A stretch of 64,000 bases of DNA from Iphione sp. A-MEVVRFRX5 (GCA_976226885.1 OZ320322.1:34224001-34288000); one strand, 5' to 3'; shown: positions 5,201 to 63,770, counted from the first letter of the stretch. Notes: generated by a model not told the origin, from the sequence alone. Made by a program: numbers and translations.

Positions 5201-7134
5201 TGAATTTTGAATATTCGTTTTAGTTCAAAATCCAGACCCGTCTTTCCTGCTTTCCTCGTCCCTACTCCCTCATTCTTTCTTGCTTATTCTTCCTGTACCT
5301 TTTCATTGTTTTTTCTCCCTTTGTCGTCCCGCTGTCCTTCCTTAGCTTTTGCTCTATACCTTCGTGTCCCTCCTCTCCTCTTCATTTCTCCTTCCCTCTT
5401 CCTATATCTCCTACATCTTCCTTTTCCTGTATCTCCCATGTTTCTGATATATTCCTCTTCTCCTATATCGCCAATATCGTCCTCATCCTGTGGTTTCTGT
5501 ATCTTCCTATTCGTGTATCTTATTTATCTCCCATATATTCCTCTTCCCCTATCTCCTAAATACTACATCTTCTCTTCTGTTCTCTGCACTCCTTCATTTC
5601 TTCCCATTGGTGTCCCTCTTCCTTTAATCCTCTAGAGGCATCCTTCTTGCGACTCCTGTTTATAAAAACATGGATGTTTTGTTATCTTTCACCAGTCACG
5701 CGACCAGAGTCTTAGGCTAATCTGAGGGAGGACTAGTTTTAATATTTATCACACGAGAGGAAACGGGGTTTTACAAATTGAATGCGGTGTGTTAATAGGA
5801 GAGGAATGTGTTGAGGAATCGTGCAATGGCTAAGGGATAAACTAACACCCTTCTATCTGATCTATCTTCAAGTTGGTTGACCCTTCAAGGGGATATAACT
5901 GTGAGAAAGCTGAGTTTACTTACTTTCTATTCTAGAGGTAGAGCTCTGGTAAAAGCAACACCTCAGTAGGTCTTATTCCCTCCTGCCTCCACACAGGTCC
6001 ACCTTCACATATAATTCTGTTTCGTGGTTATTCACACGCCATAATATTGAAAAACGTTTAATGTATTCCCTTGGGAAGGTATGATGCATACAGTATAAAT
6101 ATCAAAGTTAGTACATTTTGGTAGGAGCCCCCCTCTTACCCTACTCAATGCATCTTGTCAACATCTCTGATAGACATCTTCATGTAGTATCTAACCCCGC
6201 CCGCCCCCCATATACGAAGTAAACCACTACCGTATTCATTGAATTCACTTCTTGGTGTGCTCGACCTCTGAATGTGTCTCTACGTAACCTATGTTATCAT
6301 ATGTCTTGCGTGAATCGTGCCTGCCTCGGTGAAGATATCATTTACCCTGCACGATACTCTTCATAGGTCCCCCGATATGTTCATGTATGCAACCCGTGTT
6401 CCCGCCTGATTTACGTTATTCCTACTTTCCCGCAGTCCCTGAGTGGAGCATTGTTGACTTAGTCGTCCTTTCCTAACTGACACTTCTAACCACAAGGGGG
6501 CAGTGTCTGTCCAGCCGACAGTGCCACCGCCACATGGTCATGTCTGAGATGAGAACCATATTAGGTTGTGTCAACATGGATTGGCCTGACAGCCCCATCC
6601 TTACCCCACTTCCCATCCTCTACAATCATGTTCTACCTTCTCCTGTCCCTGTAGACCCCTCTCTTTTCTCGTGCCTCTCTCCCCCTACGGCTTCCTTTTC
6701 CACCCTCCTCCCTTCCTTCACCCCGACTTTCATACGGATATTTCTTTCACAAGCTAGTTTAGATTTAGTGGGTATAGACACCCTCTGTACCTCTGCTACA
6801 TCTCCTCCTTTACATACCCTCTTGACCTGGTATATTTACTTCATCCCTTCCCATACATCTTCCCTTTCTTATTTCTGTATGTCTGTATGTCTGTTTCTAT
6901 GCCTCGCACATATGTCGCACTCCATGCACCACGTCCTAATCGCCCTCACATCATGTTTTTATTCTTGCGACTTTCTCTGTCGCTTCGTCCTCTTGCTCAT
7001 CCTCCCCATTCTTCTCCTTTTCATTCTCTTCCCATTTAAAACGACCTTAGCTATACTCACTTCTCCTTTCCTTTCCGGCCCTTTTTCCTTTCTCTCATCT
7101 GTTTTCCACCTGCATGTACGTTTTGTTTCTTCTT

Positions 7135-55399: not shown

Positions 55400-56548
55400 A
55401 ACCACTCAGAGGATAGCCAACCATCTCAAAAACCAAATCAAGAAAAATGTTCCTGCACATAAAGCATTCTATTATAAAAGAAAACTTTATGAAAGTTGAA
55501 AGAACAGTGCGGAGCACTGGTCTATCCTTAGAGAGGTTTCTGGTTAGCAGATGAAACGTAAGAAAAATATTATACTGACTGTTAATGATAACGAGGTCAG
55601 TCACATTGATGTTCCCAATAGGTTTAAACATCACTTTGCGAACATAGCTAATGCTATCACCTCTCATCTGCCCTCTTCTAACGTATCTCGTGATAATGTC
55701 CCTGAGTATGACAATGGTAGTGAATTTTCAATCAGCAAAATTACAAAAAAGAATGTGTACACATTTGTCAAATCATTCGACAAGAATGAAAGTTGTAAGA
55801 TCCCTACAAGGTTGTTCTGGCATGGTATTACTGTATATTTAGACCAATTGACACATCTCTTCAACACAGCTGTTCACACAGCTACCTTTCGAATGGAAAA
55901 TTGCTACAGTAATCCCTCTTTTAAAGAAAGGTGACAGTACCTGTATGGATAAATATAGCCCAATTTCACTACTACCAGCGTCTACAAAAATATTTTTAAA
56001 AAATCATTTACCAACAACTGTATCATCACTTAGACGTCCAAAACAAATTAGCTGTACAACAATTCAGTTCCCGTCAGGCAAAGGATACTAGAGAAGCTAT
56101 TGTGTTTCCAATAAAATATATGCTAACACAAATGCAAATGCTAATACCAATGTGCTTTGTGTTGACCATCAGAAAGCATTTGACAGTCAATCATGAACTG
56201 CTATTAATGAAGCTAAGGAAAGATTTCAATTTCAGTGACAACACAACTAAGCTCTTCACTAGCTACCTAGAACAAAGAATGCAAGACTGTGATGGTCTAT
56301 TGTCTGATAAAAAAAAATGTCAGCATTGGTGTACCTCAAGGGTCCACTCTTGGCCCCCTTCTATTCTCTATGTTTATAAATAACCTGATATCGATTCAGA
56401 TATAACACTCTTTGTAGATAGCAATGTGATACTTGTTTCAGACGAAAAGACTGATATTTTATTTCAAAAATCAAGAATGTAGTAAACCAGTTAATGGAAT
56501 GGTGCAATCAAAACAAGCTTGTGATCTAAATCAGTAAGACCAAGATAT
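55400..56548 (+). pseudogene. Decayed CR1/L2-group LINE ORF2, part upstream of the LTR insertion (RT domain)
   Basis: Frameshifted fragments WKIATVIPLLKKGD, YSPISLLP, HLTVNHELLLMKL, GVPQGSTLGPLLFSMFINNL (from 56328), LFVDSNVI (degenerate YADD region) and NKLV..SKTKI at the insertion point. Confidence 0.9.
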
Positions 56549-56750
56549 TGTTACGGCCAGACCTTAACATACTGGAGGCATACTCCCAAGTAAGGTTTAG
56601 ATGTTTATTGCTGAGAGGTAAGAACGCAACTGAACAAAACTCCGCACGCACTTGCTTTTATACATACAGTCATAACGTGCGGAGCTAACGTGAGGAGTAA
56701 CTTACATGCTGAGTAACTCGGTGCAGAGTATATTACTGCTCCGCACAACA
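56549..56750 (-). repeat. 3' LTR (202 bp)
   Basis: TGTTAC...CACAACA on the plus strand. It matches 62724-62934 with about 13 substitutions and one 9-nt indel by manual alignment. The minus strand has TATAAAA followed by AATAAA. Confidence 0.95.
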
Positions 56751-56764
56751 CTATCCCGTCCCTT
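56751..56764 (-). promoter_or_regulatory. Polypurine tract (PPT)
   Basis: Minus-strand AAGGGACGGGATAG directly abuts the 3' LTR. Confidence 0.7.
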
Positions 56765-56931
56765 GAAAAGCTCGGTCCCCGAGCTCACGAGCTCAATAAA
56801 ATTTATCTAACCACTACTTTAGTGTACTTATACTCCAACCTCCTAGACTGGGATGGGAACTTATAAATTATGAAGAGAAAGAGCAAGCCAATACATACTT
56901 CTCTGCTTACTAACTAGGGAGGGAGAAGACA

Positions 56932-57118
56932 CCAGTACAGGTGTCTAACATTTGAAATACACAAGACCAGTACAGGTCCAGCAGACATTATTGAGCCAGT
57001 ACAGGCTCCAAAGTGAACCAGTAATAAAGGAAACCAAGACAGGTTCCCAACAAGAAAAAGGGGGGCCAGTACAGGCCTGAACTTGAACTGTAAAGGGTAA
57101 TGAGGAGGCCAGTACAGG
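56932..57118. repeat. Dispersed array of the near-palindromic 10-mer CCAGTACAGG in the element 3' region
   Basis: Exact copies at 56932, 56967, 56996, 57066 and 57109, with partial copies near 56887, 57018 and 57034. Spacers are unrelated to each other. Confidence 0.85.
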
Positions 57119-57210
57119 CTCCCAACTGCAACTTGAAGACTAATAGCAAGGTGGGGGGGAAGCCCCTAAGTCATACCCTCCCCTTCCCTATACTGGGGGG
57201 GGAGTCTTGC

Positions 57211-58434
57211 TTACTGCTCTTCCAGGATGAATGATTCCTCTGCTGACAAGGAGGAGCTGAGGCAGCCACGTGAAGCCAGGGTAGTCTCTTCATGGATTAG
57301 GTGCCCCCGAGGACATGGGTGCTCGTTCTGGTGGTCCAGGTACCAGTTCATGATGGCCTGAGGGCAGGTGCCCTCTGTCTCTGACTACAAGTCCATTTGA
57401 TGAGCGAAGATCACGTGATGGGGTGGCTCCTCCAATTCAAAGCTCACCCGGGAGTTGGCCGCAACCCACTCCCACCCCTCTGGTGGAAGTTCATGGGTGT
57501 CTAGCAGTCGCCGGTATGCCCAGCGGTGCACTGGCAAGCCCCTAGTTGTGGCGTGACCACCCCCAGCCAGCTGCTGAGGAAGTCCCCTCTCCGGAGGGAA
57601 GACACGGCCTCCCTCCTGTCTGTCATCGTGCCGCACTTGGTCCATCAGTGCCTCAACGGCCTGCGCGTCATCAGCCCGCACCTCCTCTTCTAGTGCCTCA
57701 TTGGCCTGCGTGTCGTCAGCTCTTGCCTGGTCCCCTAAGGTCTCCTCAGCCGGCGCATCTCCAGCCCTTGCTGGTCCCTCTGCCGGCTCGTCAGGTGGAA
57801 CCACAGCCTCACCTCTGTCTGGTGGTAGTTTGGCGTCACCGGTCTGCTGATGCCCATCTCCAGACTGTATGGGGAAACCCTCTTCTGCCTCGGTCTCCCC
57901 AGTAGTAGCCAAGTCAGGGAGCTCAGCAGAAGACTCTGGTGGTACTGTAGACACGGTGAGGCCCAAGGATGTCTGTGGCCGGCCCAGGGTAGATGCTCCC
58001 CCGGTGCTCCCCGTCTGACTGCTCGGATCCTCTTCCATCACCGTGGTCTCATCCCCCTCCTGGACAGGAGAGAGCGGCCGACTTCCTTGCTCAGCTGTTC
58101 CCGGCACCAGGTCCCTAGGTGGTGACTCTCCCAGTCGGAACCCAGGTGCAGCTTGGGCCCCAACAGGAGGGATGGGTGTGGAGGCCCGAGGGTCCTTCTG
58201 CCCCTCCTGGTCCTCCTTGACAGCGGTCGTGCTGTCCTCACCCTCTCCCTCCCCGGAAGAGATCACCATCACATCATCGTTCTCCAGTGCATAGGTAAAT
58301 CTGAGCAACGCCTCTACCACTTTGCCCTCACGACTCAAGTCCGTAGCATCCGACGCAGGGGTGCTAGCTGCCCGGTCACTCGTCCTCCATAGAAGTCGGT
58401 CCAGGACCACCCTCACCCTGGTGTCGGGGGACAA
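57211..58434 (-). CDS. Unknown accessory ORF (ORF4) of the LTR element: acidic low-complexity centre, 15-aa repeats and a His/Cys-rich C-terminus; one in-frame TAG at 57385-57387
   Basis: 349-codon open frame (57385..58434). Reading through the TAG gives 58 more codons (SETEGTCPQAIMNWYLDHQNEHPCPRGHLIHE...EEQ*, stop at 57211). The start codon is uncertain and the ORF may have been joined to ORF3 before a frameshift. Confidence 0.6.
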
Positions 58435-59528
58435 CTCCCAGCAGGCAAGGTTCCTGCACGGCGCTGCTTGTCCACTCCTTGGGTGCCCTCTGATCCTGGA
58501 TCACGGAAACGAGGTGAAGACCGCTTGCGCCTCCCACCTTGGCCCCGCTCACGGTATAATCCCTCGCTCTGCCGGGCCACCTCGATGAGCTGGGGAGTAA
58601 GCGATGGATCTTCTGTACCCGTAGACTGGTCCAGCCCCCACAGCTGAACCCTCGTGCCCGGAGTGCCTGATGCTCCCCAGTCAGGCGACATCCTCGTAGA
58701 GATGGTAGTGGATGTCACCGTTTGCTGGACCGGAGGTGGGCCAGGGGCAGGACTGGGGCCCCCAGCCGCGGCGGACCTCTCCCGGCCCTGGCCCCTCGAC
58801 GACTTCTTTCCTCTTCCACCTTGCGATGACTCAGACCGGTCACAGCCTGAAGGCATCTCGGACGTCGCCCTTCCGCGCACCCTCTTGTGAGGCTGCCGTT
58901 CGTCCTCCGGTGGTGCCCGTCCTTCTGCCGCAGAGGGTCTCACAGCCCACCTCCGGTTGGCCAGGCCAGGGGGCAGCAGCCCCCTCATGATCTCCAACTC
59001 CTTCTTCCTTTCCTGTGTCCCTTTCTTCTTCAACTGTTCGTACTCCTCCTGCTGGTCGGCAGGCACTGGAAGCACCACCCCAACCAGGGGAGCAGTGCGG
59101 GAGTACTCGAGGAACTGGATGTCCACGGTCTGCCCTAAGAGCAGGGGGTGTCCCCCCCTCACCCTTGTGGACACTCAGAAGGTGACGGCGGAAGTCATCT
59201 CATCATAGAAAGGCTCGTAAATGGCACTGGGGACCCAGGCAGAGTCGTCCGAACCCTCGCGGCTCGTGGGTGTCAACGTGCCGGTCCACGTTGCTCTGGC
59301 GGTTGCTGGAGTAATCACACTGGGGCTCTGGTGCTCCATCATGTGATGCGGACAAAGGCTGTGTCGAGTCGATGCGGAGTGCGACGAAACTGCATGCTCC
59401 ACCCATGCAGAGCGTAAGGAACCCTCGTGCTCCGCCCCTGCGGAGTGATGCTTGGTGCGTGTGGAGTCAGGCTCAGCACGCTCGGCAATGCTTCGGAGAC
59501 GATTCTCATACCCGTGCTGAGACGTCAC
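58413..59528 (-). CDS. Unknown accessory ORF (ORF3), split by one in-frame TGA at 59175-59177
   Basis: ORFs 59175..59528 and 58413..59174 are in the same frame and separated only by the stop codon. They lie just downstream of the internal TATA box. Confidence 0.55.
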
Positions 59529-59589
59529 AGAAGCCCCTTCTGCGTTCGTTCGATGCGAGGCAATGTGTTGGGGTTGGATGCATGGAGGC

Positions 59590-59665
59590 GACTGTTGTTT
59601 GAGCTCCGCAGCCCCTCCCCCTTATATAGGGGCCAGGTCTGCTCTGCACTTCGCTGATTGGTTGA
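59590..59665 (-). promoter_or_regulatory. Internal Pol II promoter-like segment (CCAAT + TATA)
   Basis: Minus-strand CCAATCAG (CCAAT at 59661-59657), then TATATAAG (59628-59621), then an ATG at 59583. It sits in the gap between the end of the pol-frame ORF (59726) and ORF3. Confidence 0.55.
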
Positions 59666-59725
59666 TTTTTCCCGCCTCCGTGGACTCCGCACCGGTCTAC
59701 TCTGCAGCCTGTCGTGCTCAGCACG

Positions 59726-60538
59726 CTAAGTTCCTCTGCTACTCCGCACGTCCTCCCAGGCCTTCTTCTGGTGATAATCGTGGATCTGTTGACTCACCCG
59801 CTTCCTCTCAAGCGCTCCCATCTCTGTGAACATGGTAGAGGCGAGGGTCTTGCCAAATCGCTTCACCAATGCCCTCCGCACTCCGAGCAATAGACGCACC
59901 AGCTCTCCGAAGGTCCGCCGCCTCTTTGTCGTGAGAACTCCTGAGAGACTCTTGATGCTCCTTTGAGGGTCCCGGTGCCGGGTCAGGTTGTACCCAGCCA
60001 TGAGCGCCTTCTTCATCAATTCCACTGTCATCTTCACCCAAGCACCGTCTTCAGCTGTACGAGGTTTCCATGGCATAGGCTTGACCACTTCAGGAGGATG
60101 TAGCAAGGCCTGTCTTGGCCGATACCAGCGGGGAGGCGGCGGTCGCGGTGCCGGGCTCTCAGCCTTCAAAGTGGGAGACCCCAGGGGTCCCCCCTCGGCC
60201 CGACTTCCCCTAGCGGAGTGCTCCTTGACCACTCTGGACCACGCGGTCCGCCCATCTCCTCCTCTCCCAAGTGGTGCTGTGCCAGAGCTTGCCTGCTCAA
60301 CTCCCTCACGCATCCACCGTCGAAGGGAGGGCGAAGTCCGAGGCCGCGGGCCTAGCCCTCCCCTCACCACTCGCACCCGTCCCTCGGCCACATACTTGAC
60401 TTCTGAGCCCTGCCCACTCCGGCTCGTCTTCTTCTGGGCACCCGTCCTCTGACTGAAGCCGACATCTGCCAGCGCTGATCCCTGGTGCTCCCGCTCTCCT
60501 GCTACACCCCATAGCTCGGTCACACCCCTGATCGCCAC
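59726..60538 (-). CDS. Unknown domain in frame with the protease, occupying the position where RT normally starts
   Basis: Same frame as 60542..61189 and separated only by TGA at 60542-60544. It has a Gly/Arg/Pro-rich linker, then a basic, probably helical ~100-aa segment (WVKMTVELMKKALMAGYNL...QIHDYHQKKAWE). No RT motifs. Confidence 0.65.
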   Translation of the reverse strand: MAIRGVTELWGVAGEREHQGSALADVGFSQRTGAQKKTSRSGQGSEVKYVAEGRVRVVRGGLGPRPRTSPSLRRWMREGVEQASSGTAPLGRGGDGRTAWSRVVKEHSARGSRAEGGPLGSPTLKAESPAPRPPPPRWYRPRQALLHPPEVVKPMPWKPRTAEDGAWVKMTVELMKKALMAGYNLTRHRDPQRSIKSLSGVLTTKRRRTFGELVRLLLGVRRALVKRFGKTLASTMFTEMGALERKRVSQQIHDYHQKKAWEDVRSSRGT

Positions 60539-60541
60539 TCC

Positions 60542-61189
60542 TCACCATCCGGGGAGCTCGGTCCCTCCAGGTCCAGACTTCCTCTCTGTAGCTCTCCCTG
60601 CCCTCGCCAGCTCTGACGCCACGTCCTCCGGAGGGTCTGCCCCATCACAGGCCCCCTCCTCTCCCTTCACTGGGATCCCTGCGCTCGTCTCGCCGGCCCT
60701 GCAGGCCACAGCTCCTAGGTCCTCTGCGCACCTGGCCTTGACCTCTTCAGCTTGCACCAGTTTACATCTTCCTCCATCCAGCCTCGAAGGTTCCTGTAGT
60801 TGAATCCTCAGGGATGGCTCCTGCATATTCACCGTAGTATGCCAGCGACGCAGCGTGTCAAGGCCCAAAATGGCCTCACAGTCAATGTCAGCCACAAACG
60901 ACTGAACTGGCAGGACTTCTTCTTCGAACTTCACTGCCAGCTCCACTCTCCCGATCACCTGCAGTGGGCTTCCATCTGCGCAGAGCACCCGCCCTTCCAC
61001 GGGGTCCAGCCGGTAGATCCCTGCGGCATGAGCGACTTCTTTCTTCACGAGGGTGAGGGAGGTGCCGGTATCCACCAACCAACTGAATACCCGGCCCCCT
61101 ACCTTCCCTGGAAGCACGATGCCCCATTTGGACTCACCTGGGTTTCTTTTGAGGGTCAGTTCCTTCCATCCTGCTTCGGGGGTCTCCAT
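60542..61189 (-). CDS. Retropepsin-type aspartic protease (pol-frame)
   Basis: Catalytic WLVDTGTSLTLV (DTG at 61072-61064) and a downstream AILGLDTL motif. Confidence 0.9.
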   Translation of the reverse strand: METPEAGWKELTLKRNPGESKWGIVLPGKVGGRVFSWLVDTGTSLTLVKKEVAHAAGIYRLDPVEGRVLCADGSPLQVIGRVELAVKFEEEVLPVQSFVADIDCEAILGLDTLRRWHTTVNMQEPSLRIQLQEPSRLDGGRCKLVQAEEVKARCAEDLGAVACRAGETSAGIPVKGEEGACDGADPPEDVASELARAGRATERKSGPGGTELPGW

Positions 61190-61251
61190 GCACTAGGACA
61201 GCCCATCCAGTCTGCCCGAGAGAGGATCCACATACGTCGTGGCCACCCGCC

Positions 61252-62646
61252 CTAGCTCTGGGGAGCGGCCGCCGGCCCGTTTCCCGGCTCGTTGGTCTTC
61301 GATGCTGCAAACTTCAGGCAGTCCCACTTGAAATGTGTCGGGTCATCACAGAAGTAACATCCCTTCTTCCGGGGAGGAGGGCGCGATGAGGTCCCTGATC
61401 CTTCCTACTTCTTTAACAGAGTCATGAGCAGCTCCTCAATCTGCTGCCAATGGGGGGTCTCCTCCTTCCTGGCCACAGGGCTGGGGCCTTCCACCTGCTC
61501 CACCTTGTGGACCTTCATCGGGATGCGTGCCCTCTTGCTGCTGTAGTAGGACTCCGCTAGCTGGGCCTCAGATATGGTCTTCCTGAAAGTCGACACTCTC
61601 GCCTGAGTAACCCACTTCCATTCTTTCTCATTCGAGAGAGAGCCCACGAAATACTCCCTGCACATTCTATCCTTCCATTGCCCGGTGGCCTCTGGATAGG
61701 CGAGGCGCACTAGCCGCTCGATATCGTTGGCCAATTCCCCCAGTCTTTCTTCCTTCCTCTGCTTCCGGTACTTAAGCTGTTGGATGTATGCATCAACTTG
61801 GTCCGCCGGCTGGAACCTATTGGGTAGGGCTTGTACAATCTTCTCGTATGTGTCGGGCTGTTCCATGTTCACCTGAGCATTCCGTAGAGTGGTCCTTGCA
61901 GCTTTCCTAAGGCTCACCCCTAGCTGCAGGGCCTTCTCTCTCTCCATCCAGCCATTGGCCTCTGAGACCAGCTCATAATGGTGCAGGAAATCCGAAAGTG
62001 GGGTCGATCCATCGTACGAGTCAGGCTTGACCGGGGTCCGTCGATGAGTCTCCCTCGGCTGCAGGGCTTGGCGTAACACTCCAACGAGTTCCTCTACCGG
62101 CCCTCGCTCCCCGTCCAAAGTTGGCTCCTGGTCCTCTTCATCCGTGGACAATTTGTCCTCTGACTGCTCCTCTGTGCTTCCGTCAGATGAATCGTCCTCT
62201 TCAAATTGCGCCCTTCCCCTTCTCCACTCCGGCCGTTGTGATGGGGGCCGAGGGGCCCCACGGGTAACTGGGGTACCCTCGGTCACCCCTCCTTCACCGG
62301 CCCCCAATGCCATGGGTGAGATGGCCCCTCCTTGCTTCCCGGTGCGGCCCCGGCCCCTAACAGGTTCTTCCATAGCTGCGACCCGCGCTGCGGCAATGGG
62401 CAGCCGTGCATCCGCGCCCGCTTTGCTGACATGCAGGAACCCGCCAAGGAGGCTGGGGGTGCCCAGCTTCGCCGTGGGCAACTGGATGTCCGTGTGCCCC
62501 GTCTGAACGGCGTGCTCCGCAGGCAACGACTTGGTGAGCTCAGCGCTGGGGTGCTCAGCGTCGGACTCAGCCGACTCCACACGCTGAGTCGACCTGTCTT
62601 CTTTCTCCTCACGCTGAGCTGCTCCACATGCTGAGCTACTCCGCAT
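61252..62646 (-). CDS. gag: Gag (Ty3/Gypsy-type capsid plus CCHC nucleocapsid), one in-frame TAG at 61405-61407
   Basis: Capsid-like segment PVKPDSYDGSTPLSDFLHHYELVSEANGW..EKALQL...LRKAA and YRKQRKEERLGELANDIERLVRLAYP. After the TAG the same frame encodes CYFCDDPTHFKWDC (CX2CX4HX4C, 61359-61318). Confidence 0.9.
61279..61285 (-). promoter_or_regulatory. -1 ribosomal frameshift slippery site G GGA AAC
   Basis: The X XXY YYZ heptamer is in the correct phase in the gag frame. A -1 shift enters the protease frame (61279-61189 = 90 nt), with one TAG at 61193-61195. A GC-rich sequence able to form a stem follows (e.g. GCTC-CCCA-GAGC). Confidence 0.75.
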
Positions 62647-62704
62647 GCCTCCGTATGCTCCGAGCTCCGCACCTCAGTGTTCTTCATCTGCGAGGGAGGA
62701 ATCC

Positions 62705-62722
62705 ATCCCACTGCTGCCACCA
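62705..62722 (-). promoter_or_regulatory. Primer-binding site, tRNA-Leu type
   Basis: Minus-strand TGGTGGCAGCAGTGGGAT lies 1 nt after the 5' LTR. It is complementary to the 3' end of metazoan tRNA-Leu (…AUCCCACCGCUGCCACCA) with one difference. Confidence 0.8.
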
Positions 62723-62723
62723 A

Positions 62724-62934
62724 TGTTACAGCCAGATGTTAACATACTGGAGGCAGACTCCCAAGTAAGGTTTAAATGTTTATTGCTGAGAGGTAAGAAT
62801 GCAAAAGAACTAAACTCCACACGCACTTGCTTTTATACATACAGTCATAACGTACGGAGCTAACGTGAGGAGTAACTTACATGCTGAGTGTGCTGAGTAA
62901 CTCAGTGCGGAGTATATTACTGCTCCGCACAACA
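62724..62934 (-). repeat. 5' LTR (211 bp)
   Basis: Paired with 56549-56750. It carries an extra 9-nt duplication (gtgctgagt). Confidence 0.95.
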
Positions 62935-63770
62935 ATATTACCTGTTTATGTAAACAATCAAAACATGCATGACGGTTGCTACTGTTGGTGAGTCCATTGA
63001 ATAATGTTAACACACACACATATCTTGATATTCAACTTGAGTCAGACATGAAATTCAAGAATGAAATTGTCAAAATAATAAGGAAAGTTTCGCAAGAAAT
63101 AACTATGCTGTATAAAATGATGTTGTTTATAAATTGCACAGACATGATAAGGTTATATTATCGATTCACATTACCACATGTTGATAACTCAATGGTAATG
63201 TTGAATTGCTGCAGCAAACATGACCTAAATATACTACAAAAATTGCAAAACGGGGCACATGCTGTCATATATACTTGTTACAAAGATTACACAAAGTCAG
63301 GAAATACGCAGTACAGGCTTGGACTTGTTTAACTTCATAACTGTGGCTCAAAGGAGAAAATCATTAAAGTGAACGTTGTACACAACCTTTACCTTCTGGG
63401 GCTTCTTCCAAGACAAAACCAAATAAACACTAGACAACATGATGCCCATCTGCTATATATCTCTAAACCGAGCACTGAATTGATAAGGAAATCTACATCA
63501 TCAAGCAAATTAGAGACTGGCATCAATTGGACCCCCTCCTGCGGGGTTCTGAATGAATGGAACAATTCAGAACCATGCCACGTTTTGTCAGATAAGCAGT
63601 AAGATCTGTATGCATTTTTCATGACTTACCATACCGAAGTTACTCAAGCATTCATCTAGTCTATTCATATGTACCACATCAACAATCCTTTTTTTCTGTA
63701 CATATTTGCCCAGGTGCATCTGGGTTTGAAAACTGGCTGACAAGGGCGAAATTTGGATGAAATAAATAAA
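62935..63770 (+). pseudogene. Continuation of the same decayed LINE ORF2 and its 3' end
   Basis: Fragments YLDIQLESDMKFKNEIVKIIRKVS and LNILQKLQNGAHAVI match post-RT LINE motifs (YLGI.LD..L.F..HI and LQKLQN.A.R.I). It ends near an AAATAAATAAA tail. Confidence 0.8.

Follow-up and report, generated by a model that had tools for sequence, protein, structure and literature searches.

We analysed a 64,000-nt stretch of DNA from Iphione sp. A-MEVVRFRX5 (GCA_976226885.1 OZ320322.1:34224001-34288000; hereafter the window) and found that the 6,386-nt long terminal repeat (LTR) element at positions 56549-62934, on the minus strand, is a decayed member of an old non-autonomous Ty3/Gypsy family, present in many copies and without reverse transcriptase (RT), RNase H (RH) and integrase (IN). 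The family keeps gag and protease (PR) and, behind them, a coding extension with two C2H2 zinc fingers that probably recognise GCGGAG, a word clustered around the element's own LTR and a likely internal promoter. We hold the structural and evolutionary part of this account to be very nearly certain; the regulatory part is graded below.

A family search with a 701-nt query gave 209 candidates, the best 40 of which were scored, and 39 other places were fetched, a sample biased towards copies resembling the window copy. Two LTRs, a length of 5.8-6.4 kb and the same layout were shared by 33 of the 39. All 39 were colinear with the window copy where aligned, and none carried a pol-sized insert. A family-specific 23-mer matched 191 times and its reversed control not at all; the family of 6.3-kb elements has at least 191 copies, and an LTR 22-mer matched the genome 708 times. 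These data agree with a first-pass annotation, made from the sequence of the window alone, that had proposed a non-autonomous lineage as opposed to a single deletion event. The other copies are mostly younger than the one in the window (LTR identity 92-100%), and old copies in the genome show CpG-type decay. Target-site duplications were a perfect 4 bp in 44 of 47 family and helper copies (ATAT in 32 of 47), with insertion sites following an AT-rich RTAT pattern.

The signals reported at first pass were all recovered: LTRs (189 of 202 positions identical in the window copy, with TG...CA ends), primer binding site (PBS), polypurine tract and target-site duplication (ATAT), a gag with a CCHC knuckle, a phased GGGAAAC -1 frameshift site and a protease (Pfam E 7e-8). 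The PBS is complementary to the 3' end of tRNA-Leu of the same genome (14 pattern matches; 4/4 examined were tRNA-Leu). GGGAAAC is correctly phased and has a hairpin 6-7 nt 3' of it, and both heptamer and hairpin recur in the autonomous helper described below and in three sister families. The catalytic Asp of the protease is kept in 34/34 copies, and gag has a weak Pfam match in the window copy. The reported absence of RT, RNase H and integrase was likewise confirmed, with no Pfam match in seven window frames or in the second open reading frame (ORF2) of two unbroken copies; no env match was found by Pfam in the element, the 3' coding sequence of which is hydrophilic.

An unbroken frame of 1350-1354 codons follows gag in 3 of 34 copies (L034, L036 and L041), and about 46 of 150 scored finger-query matches, counted by eye, lie in an unbroken 1350-codon frame. 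This ORF2, in the -1 frame relative to gag, encodes protease, a linker, a 'mid' module, a repetitive zone, the two C2H2 fingers, a basic-then-acidic tail and a C-terminal domain, in that order. Set against a naturally intact member of the family, the window copy shows two gag stops, seven ORF2 stops (the one at 58415 is probably an alignment effect beside a frameshift) and four frameshifts, at about 59539, 59322, 59158 and 58374. Its frames of 271, 148, 253 and 371 aa, taken at first pass for two or three novel proteins interrupted mostly by lone stop codons, are fragments of the single 1350-codon frame, split by stops and frameshifts together. The C2H2 pair was invisible to that reading because in the window copy a frameshift and two stops disrupt it.

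The origin of the sequence behind the protease was traced through the PBS. A PBS pattern excluding the satellite family gave at least 2,918 matches, and 40 of the first 100 listed, spanning flanking variants, were fetched. Several were autonomous elements in which PR-RT-RH-IN continues in frame into the same modules. ORF2 aa 313-1349 aligned with pol aa 1194-2387 of one of them (L108) at 28% identity, starting at the integrase end, and the mid, finger and C-terminal modules stand in the same order behind integrase in sister families. This homology indicates that RT-RH-IN was deleted and the extension kept, not gained; judged by the alignment, the ORF2 tail is the post-integrase extension of an autonomous Gypsy clade, and the gained cassette proposed at first pass has to be given up. 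In the near clade the finger module is fused in frame behind integrase (pols of 2101-2520 codons), and in distant families the finger ORF is separate and lies over 1 kb past the pol stop. Two database proteins (P0137 and P0141) show the same fused architecture by eye, with other helices, so the architecture is not confined to this genome. A metagenome scan yielded eight loci, none with the finger pair, and viral contigs yielded none. Gmr1-like Gypsy elements, in which integrase precedes RT (PR-IN-RT-RH), were ruled out, as the autonomous relatives and the helper are PR-RT-RH-IN.

The extra coding sequence had also been called novel, but it includes the recognisable C2H2 pair; the mid module belongs to no known family. 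The mid module (~140 aa) occurs after integrase in three sister families and is absent from the present helper. A HMMER search of ORF2 aa 380-800 against 1.84 billion representatives returned 30 matches, none on the mid module; in every one the best-matching stretch lay at or near the fingers. The ESM Atlas gave no usable match for the mid module, and for the C-terminal domain its scores did not exceed 0.83; nothing scored in word-index homologue searches with protease and with the gag core. For the C-terminal domain, Foldseek against the PDB gave no match at E 0.001 or better, and the best viral row had E 1.0e-3. Its best fold match, among phage tail-terminator-like folds (Z 7.9, root-mean-square deviation 3.4, 98 aligned), falls in a commonplace score range, and no function was drawn from it.

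Selection was measured as the ratio of nonsynonymous to synonymous substitution rates (dN/dS) between subfamilies A (13 copies) and B (18 copies). The ratio was 0.04 in the gag core, 0.14 in protease, 0.20 in mid, 0.16 in the fingers, 0.16 in the tail and 0.03 in the C-terminal domain, against 1.15-4.7 in shifted frames of the six modules and 0.34-0.86 for private variants. The six modules differed from the private-variant baseline (Fisher p <0.01); the linker, junction and repetitive zone did not. Purifying selection acts on gag, protease, mid, fingers, tail and C-terminal domain, in line with the first-pass view that gag and protease are retained, and the dN/dS check it had called for showed the extra coding sequence not to be neutral (0.03-0.20). 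Indels were in frame in 9 of 10 shared and 28 of 93 private cases (p 1.5e-4), indicating that the fusion frame itself is maintained. In the repetitive zone dN/dS was 1.15 with the lowest synonymous divergence (0.04), which suggests constraint on the DNA.

The helper postulated at first pass was found as an 8.6-kb autonomous family in the same genome, with 62 integrase matches at 87% or more and an LTR (98%) and gag (95%) nearly identical to those of the satellite. Of 16 young helper copies retrieved, 15 combine a pol of 2100-2109 codons with an intact gag frame, and all 16 match L034 at 97-99% in the LTR and 94-96% over nt 1-1712. Amino acid identity between helper and satellite is 47% in protease and 44% in the tail. 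Along L034, identity to the helper is 93-99% over nt 1-1500, falls just past the frameshift site to 46-69% over nt 1701-2400, and rises again near the 3' end, to 92-98% from nt 5665 on. Young helpers and young satellites both have LTR identities of 99-100%, and satellites outnumber helpers by about 3 to 1. The phylogeny suggested at first pass for finding the helper gave a divided answer, the protease tree separating helper from satellites and the gag tree nesting helpers among them. The satellites form one clade in the protease and finger trees (support 100 and 98), and a grouping of helper with subfamily B was rejected (approximately unbiased test, p-AU 0.002 for protease and 0.007 for fingers). 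In the gag tree (4 of 36 rows had too little gag) young helpers nest in subfamily B and the older helpers L110, L116 and L120 in subfamily A; L120 gag is 91% like A and 84% like B. Divergent protease and tail beside near-identical LTR and gag point to an old lineage that swaps its ends with the helper, and we infer repeated exchange of LTR and gag by template switching. Because the LTR ends are shared, the RTAT target is the same and the ages match, the satellite likely borrows RT, RNase H and integrase from this helper.

Zif268-type C2H2 fingers touch bases through helix positions -1, 2, 3 and 6 and usually read DNA antiparallel, and the tandem pair of this family has that layout. In unbroken copies the helices are RQSNVDR (finger 1) and RRDDFRR (finger 2); R-1, N3 and R6 of finger 1 and R-1, D2, D3 and R6 of finger 2 are kept in 29-33 of 34 copies, and N3, R6, D3 and R6 are invariant in 10 aligned finger proteins. 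The pair scores E 5e-5 with Pfam zf-C2H2, just under the curated cut-off, has profile matches to Aart, CTCF and Zif268, and was modelled with a predicted local distance difference test score (pLDDT) of 86.7; a fold search with the model returned generic C2H2 structures only. The inter-finger linker has 8 residues, one above canonical. In the accessible text of one source, the engineered finger modules RSDNLVR and RSDDLVR are given for GAG and GCG, respectively (PMC5260015). Matching the helices to these modules and reading antiparallel gives a predicted site of 5'-GCGGAG-3'.

The predicted word is concentrated at the two probable promoters of the element. In L034, 28 of 29 GCGGAG sites lie in the LTR/leader (12), the promoter zone (12) and the 3' LTR (4), the 5' part of gag coinciding with the GCGGAG-rich leader. 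Over 34 copies the median density per kb was 21.2 in nt 1-520, 18.4 in the promoter zone and 0.4 in both coding stretches, compared with 0.35 in the rest of the window. The helper has the same two clusters. A ranking of about 500 hexamers over the first 700 nt placed GCGGAG first or second in 7 of the 9 near-clade elements other than the window copy. The corresponding 700 nt of 16 distant elements, which have different fingers or none, contained it once in one element and not at all in 15. We consider it probable, from this agreement between helices and motif, that the finger pair binds GCGGAG. The second cluster surrounds a CCAAT followed 32 nt on by TATATAA in the repetitive zone, both present in 34/34 copies and 300-380 nt upstream of the fingers, where the first Cys is preceded by a Met at a distance of four codons. 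A CCAAT-TATA pair with a spacing of 32-52 nt, followed by a Met 6-12 codons ahead of the fingers, also occurs in the helper, L108/L109, L054/L086, L065 and L125-L129; family S1 has CCAAT without a clear TATA. This zone is likely the internal promoter of the finger protein.

From these elements we propose the following mechanism. The genomic RNA would yield Gag and, through the -1 frameshift, a Gag-protease-mid-zinc-finger fusion, so that the element makes and matures capsids. Satellite RNA would be packaged together with helper RNA, and template switching would keep LTR and gag matched while the middle diverges. The internal CCAAT/TATA promoter would give a separate finger protein of ~690 aa, which would bind both GCGGAG clusters in satellite and helper and activate them or prevent their silencing, in a positive feedback loop; the satellite would thereby repay the helper with Gag, protease and a regulator. 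We lean, with some reserve, towards this mechanism as a whole, including activation of the element's own LTR and internal promoter by the finger protein. A wider proposition, that this is an animal Gypsy clade in which an internal promoter expresses an element's own C2H2 factor, which binds arrays at LTR and promoter in Tas- or VANC-like self-activation, and in which satellites repeatedly drop RT-RH-IN, keep the regulator and swap LTR and gag, forming a two-component, partly cooperative genome with the helper, stands for us in even balance.

Several observations weigh against this mechanism. GCGGAG ranks only ninth in the window copy, and the motif had already been spotted by eye when the code prediction was set down. 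As the related families descend from a common ancestor, the match of motif and fingers is a single event and not nine. S1 (L106), in which position -1 of finger 1 is Lys, has moved to GCGGTT/GTC; the code accounts for this shift only in part, leaving the middle base unpredicted. L065 likewise has Lys at -1 but retains GCGGAG. The word is common within pol of L086 and L054 (28 and 26 in ~3.5 kb), and 14 distant elements with other fingers showed no strong motif common to both zones. In another satellite lineage 4 of 10 copies are without the finger ORF and have LTRs 99.5-100% identical, which makes the ORF dispensable in cis. Satellite monophyly in gag was not formally rejected (p-AU 0.073), and the gag tree alone is not decisive. 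The preference for activation over repression is drawn from the acidic tail and from analogy.

Repression is the first alternative: the finger protein would bind the same clusters and act in negative feedback, or the satellite would damp its helper like a defective-interfering element. The same evidence of helices, motif and density fits, GCGGAG sites flank each TATA on both sides and extend over the PBS leader, a hydrophobic-plus-acidic motif in the tail may resemble a SUMO-interacting motif, and satellites exceed helpers in number. Yet the tail is strongly acidic (net -12 to -20 per 100 aa), young helpers and satellites have spread together, judged by their LTR identities, and Asp3 of finger 2 resembles the Klf4 E446D change, which in the part of the source available confers preference for unmethylated C (PMC5137437) and fits binding to active copies. 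We regard repression as unlikely. We also think it improbable that GCGGAG is a host-factor site while the fingers act otherwise, in RNA binding, packaging or protein contact, the code match being coincidence or relic. GC-box-like words are commonplace in promoters, the code fits imperfectly in S1 and L065, and a frame open from protease through the fingers probably delivers the protein into particles too; the two-finger prediction, however, exactly equals the top-ranked hexamer, 15 of the 16 distant elements of this host lack the word at their 5' ends, and the residues invariant in the 10 proteins are the DNA-contact ones. A role of the fingers as a chromodomain-like integrase targeting domain in the helper, and a passenger in the satellite, draws on the in-frame fusion behind integrase in the near clade, but is largely refuted for GCGGAG and very doubtful: 47 insertion sites show no GCGGAG excess (0.07-0.11 per kb within 1 kb; 0.11-0.26 further out), the module is under selection in a family without integrase, and distant families carry it as a separate ORF beyond the pol stop. 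That RT, RNase H and integrase were replaced by newly gained cargo of two or three separate proteins is scarcely credible, since the region is a single frame in unbroken copies and its modules keep their order behind integrase in sister families, even though today's helper has no mid module and nothing outside the clade matches it.

Among known systems, the soybean autonomous/non-autonomous partnership by LTR swapping that Du et al. 2010 are said to have described is comparable: there, too, an old non-autonomous lineage would stay compatible with its helper through recombination at the ends. In the present family the exchanged block extends from the 3' end through the LTR and all of gag to the frameshift site, in an animal-type genome. 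The element is, by its gene content, one of the gag-plus-protease Gypsy satellites, a functional class and not a clade. The first-pass annotation knew of no description of such an arrangement, but the layout has a precedent in the non-autonomous wheat Fatima subfamily TREP3198, a gag-plus-protease satellite that shares its LTR with a partner (PMC3129301); in the accessible text, both cases have many RT-less copies and a partner whose LTR matches while its protease has diverged further. Fatima is a plant element, and the accessible part of its report gives no similarity for the rest of the interior and describes no zinc finger, internal promoter or binding motif (PMC3129301). Compared with what is accessible on Fatima, gag is here shared as well, and the extra part comes from the post-integrase extension of the partner's clade. 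TR-GAG elements, also non-autonomous and keeping gag, are given in the accessible text as under 4 kb with a single ORF (PMC4350172); identity with them was ruled out by the 6.3-kb length and second, 1350-codon frame.

For the regulator, the nearest likenesses lie in other kinds of element. Foamy viruses are retroviruses with env, and their Tas is a DNA-binding protein that is not known to be of the C2H2 type. If our inference holds, the likeness is that of a 3' regulator expressed from a promoter within upstream coding sequence and acting on LTR and internal promoter, as set out in the accessible part of one account (PMC7828637). VANC of the Arabidopsis VANDAL elements is, in the accessible text, a sequence-specific protein encoded by the element, with short targets in its own regulatory regions that vary between families (PMC5735166); GCGGAG is similarly piled up in the element's own regulatory regions. 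VANC belongs to a plant DNA transposon and is an unrelated protein, and demethylation was shown for it in the accessible text (PMC5735166), whereas the present system is predicted from sequence. The Oikopleura LTR retrotransposons Tor3b and Tor4b have an internal promoter in or behind pol that drives a 3' ORF, in the accessible text a membrane Env and not a zinc-finger protein (PMC4402516). The regulatory design would, by analogy, work like Tas or VANC without membership in either group. Within the literature covered, which left Repbase-type reports and most subscription papers outside its scope, no LTR retrotransposon with a self-targeting finger was found.

Two further satellite lineages were observed in this genome. 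The second (L068, L152-L161) has gag, protease and a separate finger ORF in 7-8 kb; L068 had 19 matches, and 8 of 10 fetched relatives carry protease and the accessory ORF without RT and integrase. Two of the 10 carry integrase; in these (L159 and L160) the L068-type accessory variant occurs together with integrase, suggesting recombination back into an autonomous family. For the third (L076, L051, L142-L151) the best 40 of 723 candidates were scored; all 10 fetched copies keep gag, protease remnants and pol fragments only, and the finger ORF is kept in 6 of 10 and missing in 4 of 10. Its elements are ~7.4 kb with the finger ORF and 6.2-6.4 kb without, with LTRs 99.5-100% identical. The tRNA-Leu PBS, at no fewer than 2,918 further sites, marks a large young Gypsy radiation, in which most sampled elements carry a 3' C2H2 accessory ORF, fused or separate. 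CCAATCA occurs 5-7 times in the LTR/leader (first 700 nt) of the distant family L060, L068 and L080, and L053, L070, L083, L111 and L116 harbour foreign sequence or further LTR elements nested within them.

Smaller observations concern the proteins and the insertion site. The tail contains the short conserved words LWGLD, LTPQL and PPTPG, and a hydrophobic run followed by Ser and acidic residues (L034 ORF2 aa 1023-1032, helper aa 1804-1811, L106 aa 2118-2126), resembling a SUMO-interacting motif. A beta-rich-looking segment without Pfam match (helper pol aa 170-270, ORF2 aa 186-290) sits between protease and RT in the helper and is decaying in the satellite; we take it to recall a degenerate dUTPase-like domain. 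Judged by sequence motifs, we take window positions 55500-56548 and 62935-63330 to hold a decayed LINE-like RT fragment (LINE, long interspersed nuclear element) spanning the insertion site, into which the element appears to have inserted; three short frames of this flank had no Pfam match. The features of the window copy are listed below.

Features of the LTR element and their positions in the window
Feature	Position	Strand	Remarks
5' LTR	62724..62934	-	TG...CA; TATA-like and AATAAA motifs, GCGGAG sites
3' LTR	56549..56750	-	
Target-site duplication ATAT	56545..56548; second copy 62935-62938		
Primer binding site, tRNA-Leu	62705..62722	-	one mismatch in window copy
Polypurine tract	56751..56766	-	
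gag	61255..62706	-	526 codons in unbroken copies; two stops in window copy
CCHC zinc knuckle	61318..61359	-	
-1 frameshift signal	61236..61285	-	GGGAAAC at 61279-61285 and downstream hairpin
Aspartic protease	60788..61135	-	Pfam E 7e-8; dN/dS 0.14
Post-protease linker and junction zone	60152..60787	-	place of the missing RT, RNase H and integrase; selection weak or none
'Mid' module	59732..60151	-	~140 aa, no known family; dN/dS 0.20
Likely internal promoter within open frame	59343..59880	-	GCGGAG cluster; CCAAT 59657-59661, TATATAA 59622-59628
Met and two C2H2 fingers	59167..59342	-	broken in window copy; dN/dS 0.16
Beta-hairpin and helix, then low-complexity basic-to-acidic tail	57544..59166	-	short conserved motifs; dN/dS 0.16
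C-terminal alpha/beta domain	57214..57543	-	~110 aa; AlphaFold pLDDT 89.6; dN/dS 0.03

LTR retrotransposons are usually taken to depend on host transcription factors, and DNA-binding regulators encoded by the elements themselves are familiar from complex retroviruses and certain DNA transposons. In the family described here, the protein, its predicted site and the promoters can all be read from the sequence, and sister families differ in both finger residues and motif, so that self-activation of a retroelement, or its escape from silencing, becomes directly testable. The family also offers an animal case of a long-lived helper-satellite pair and indicates what satellites retain: in three separate lineages of this genome it is capsid, protease and regulator.

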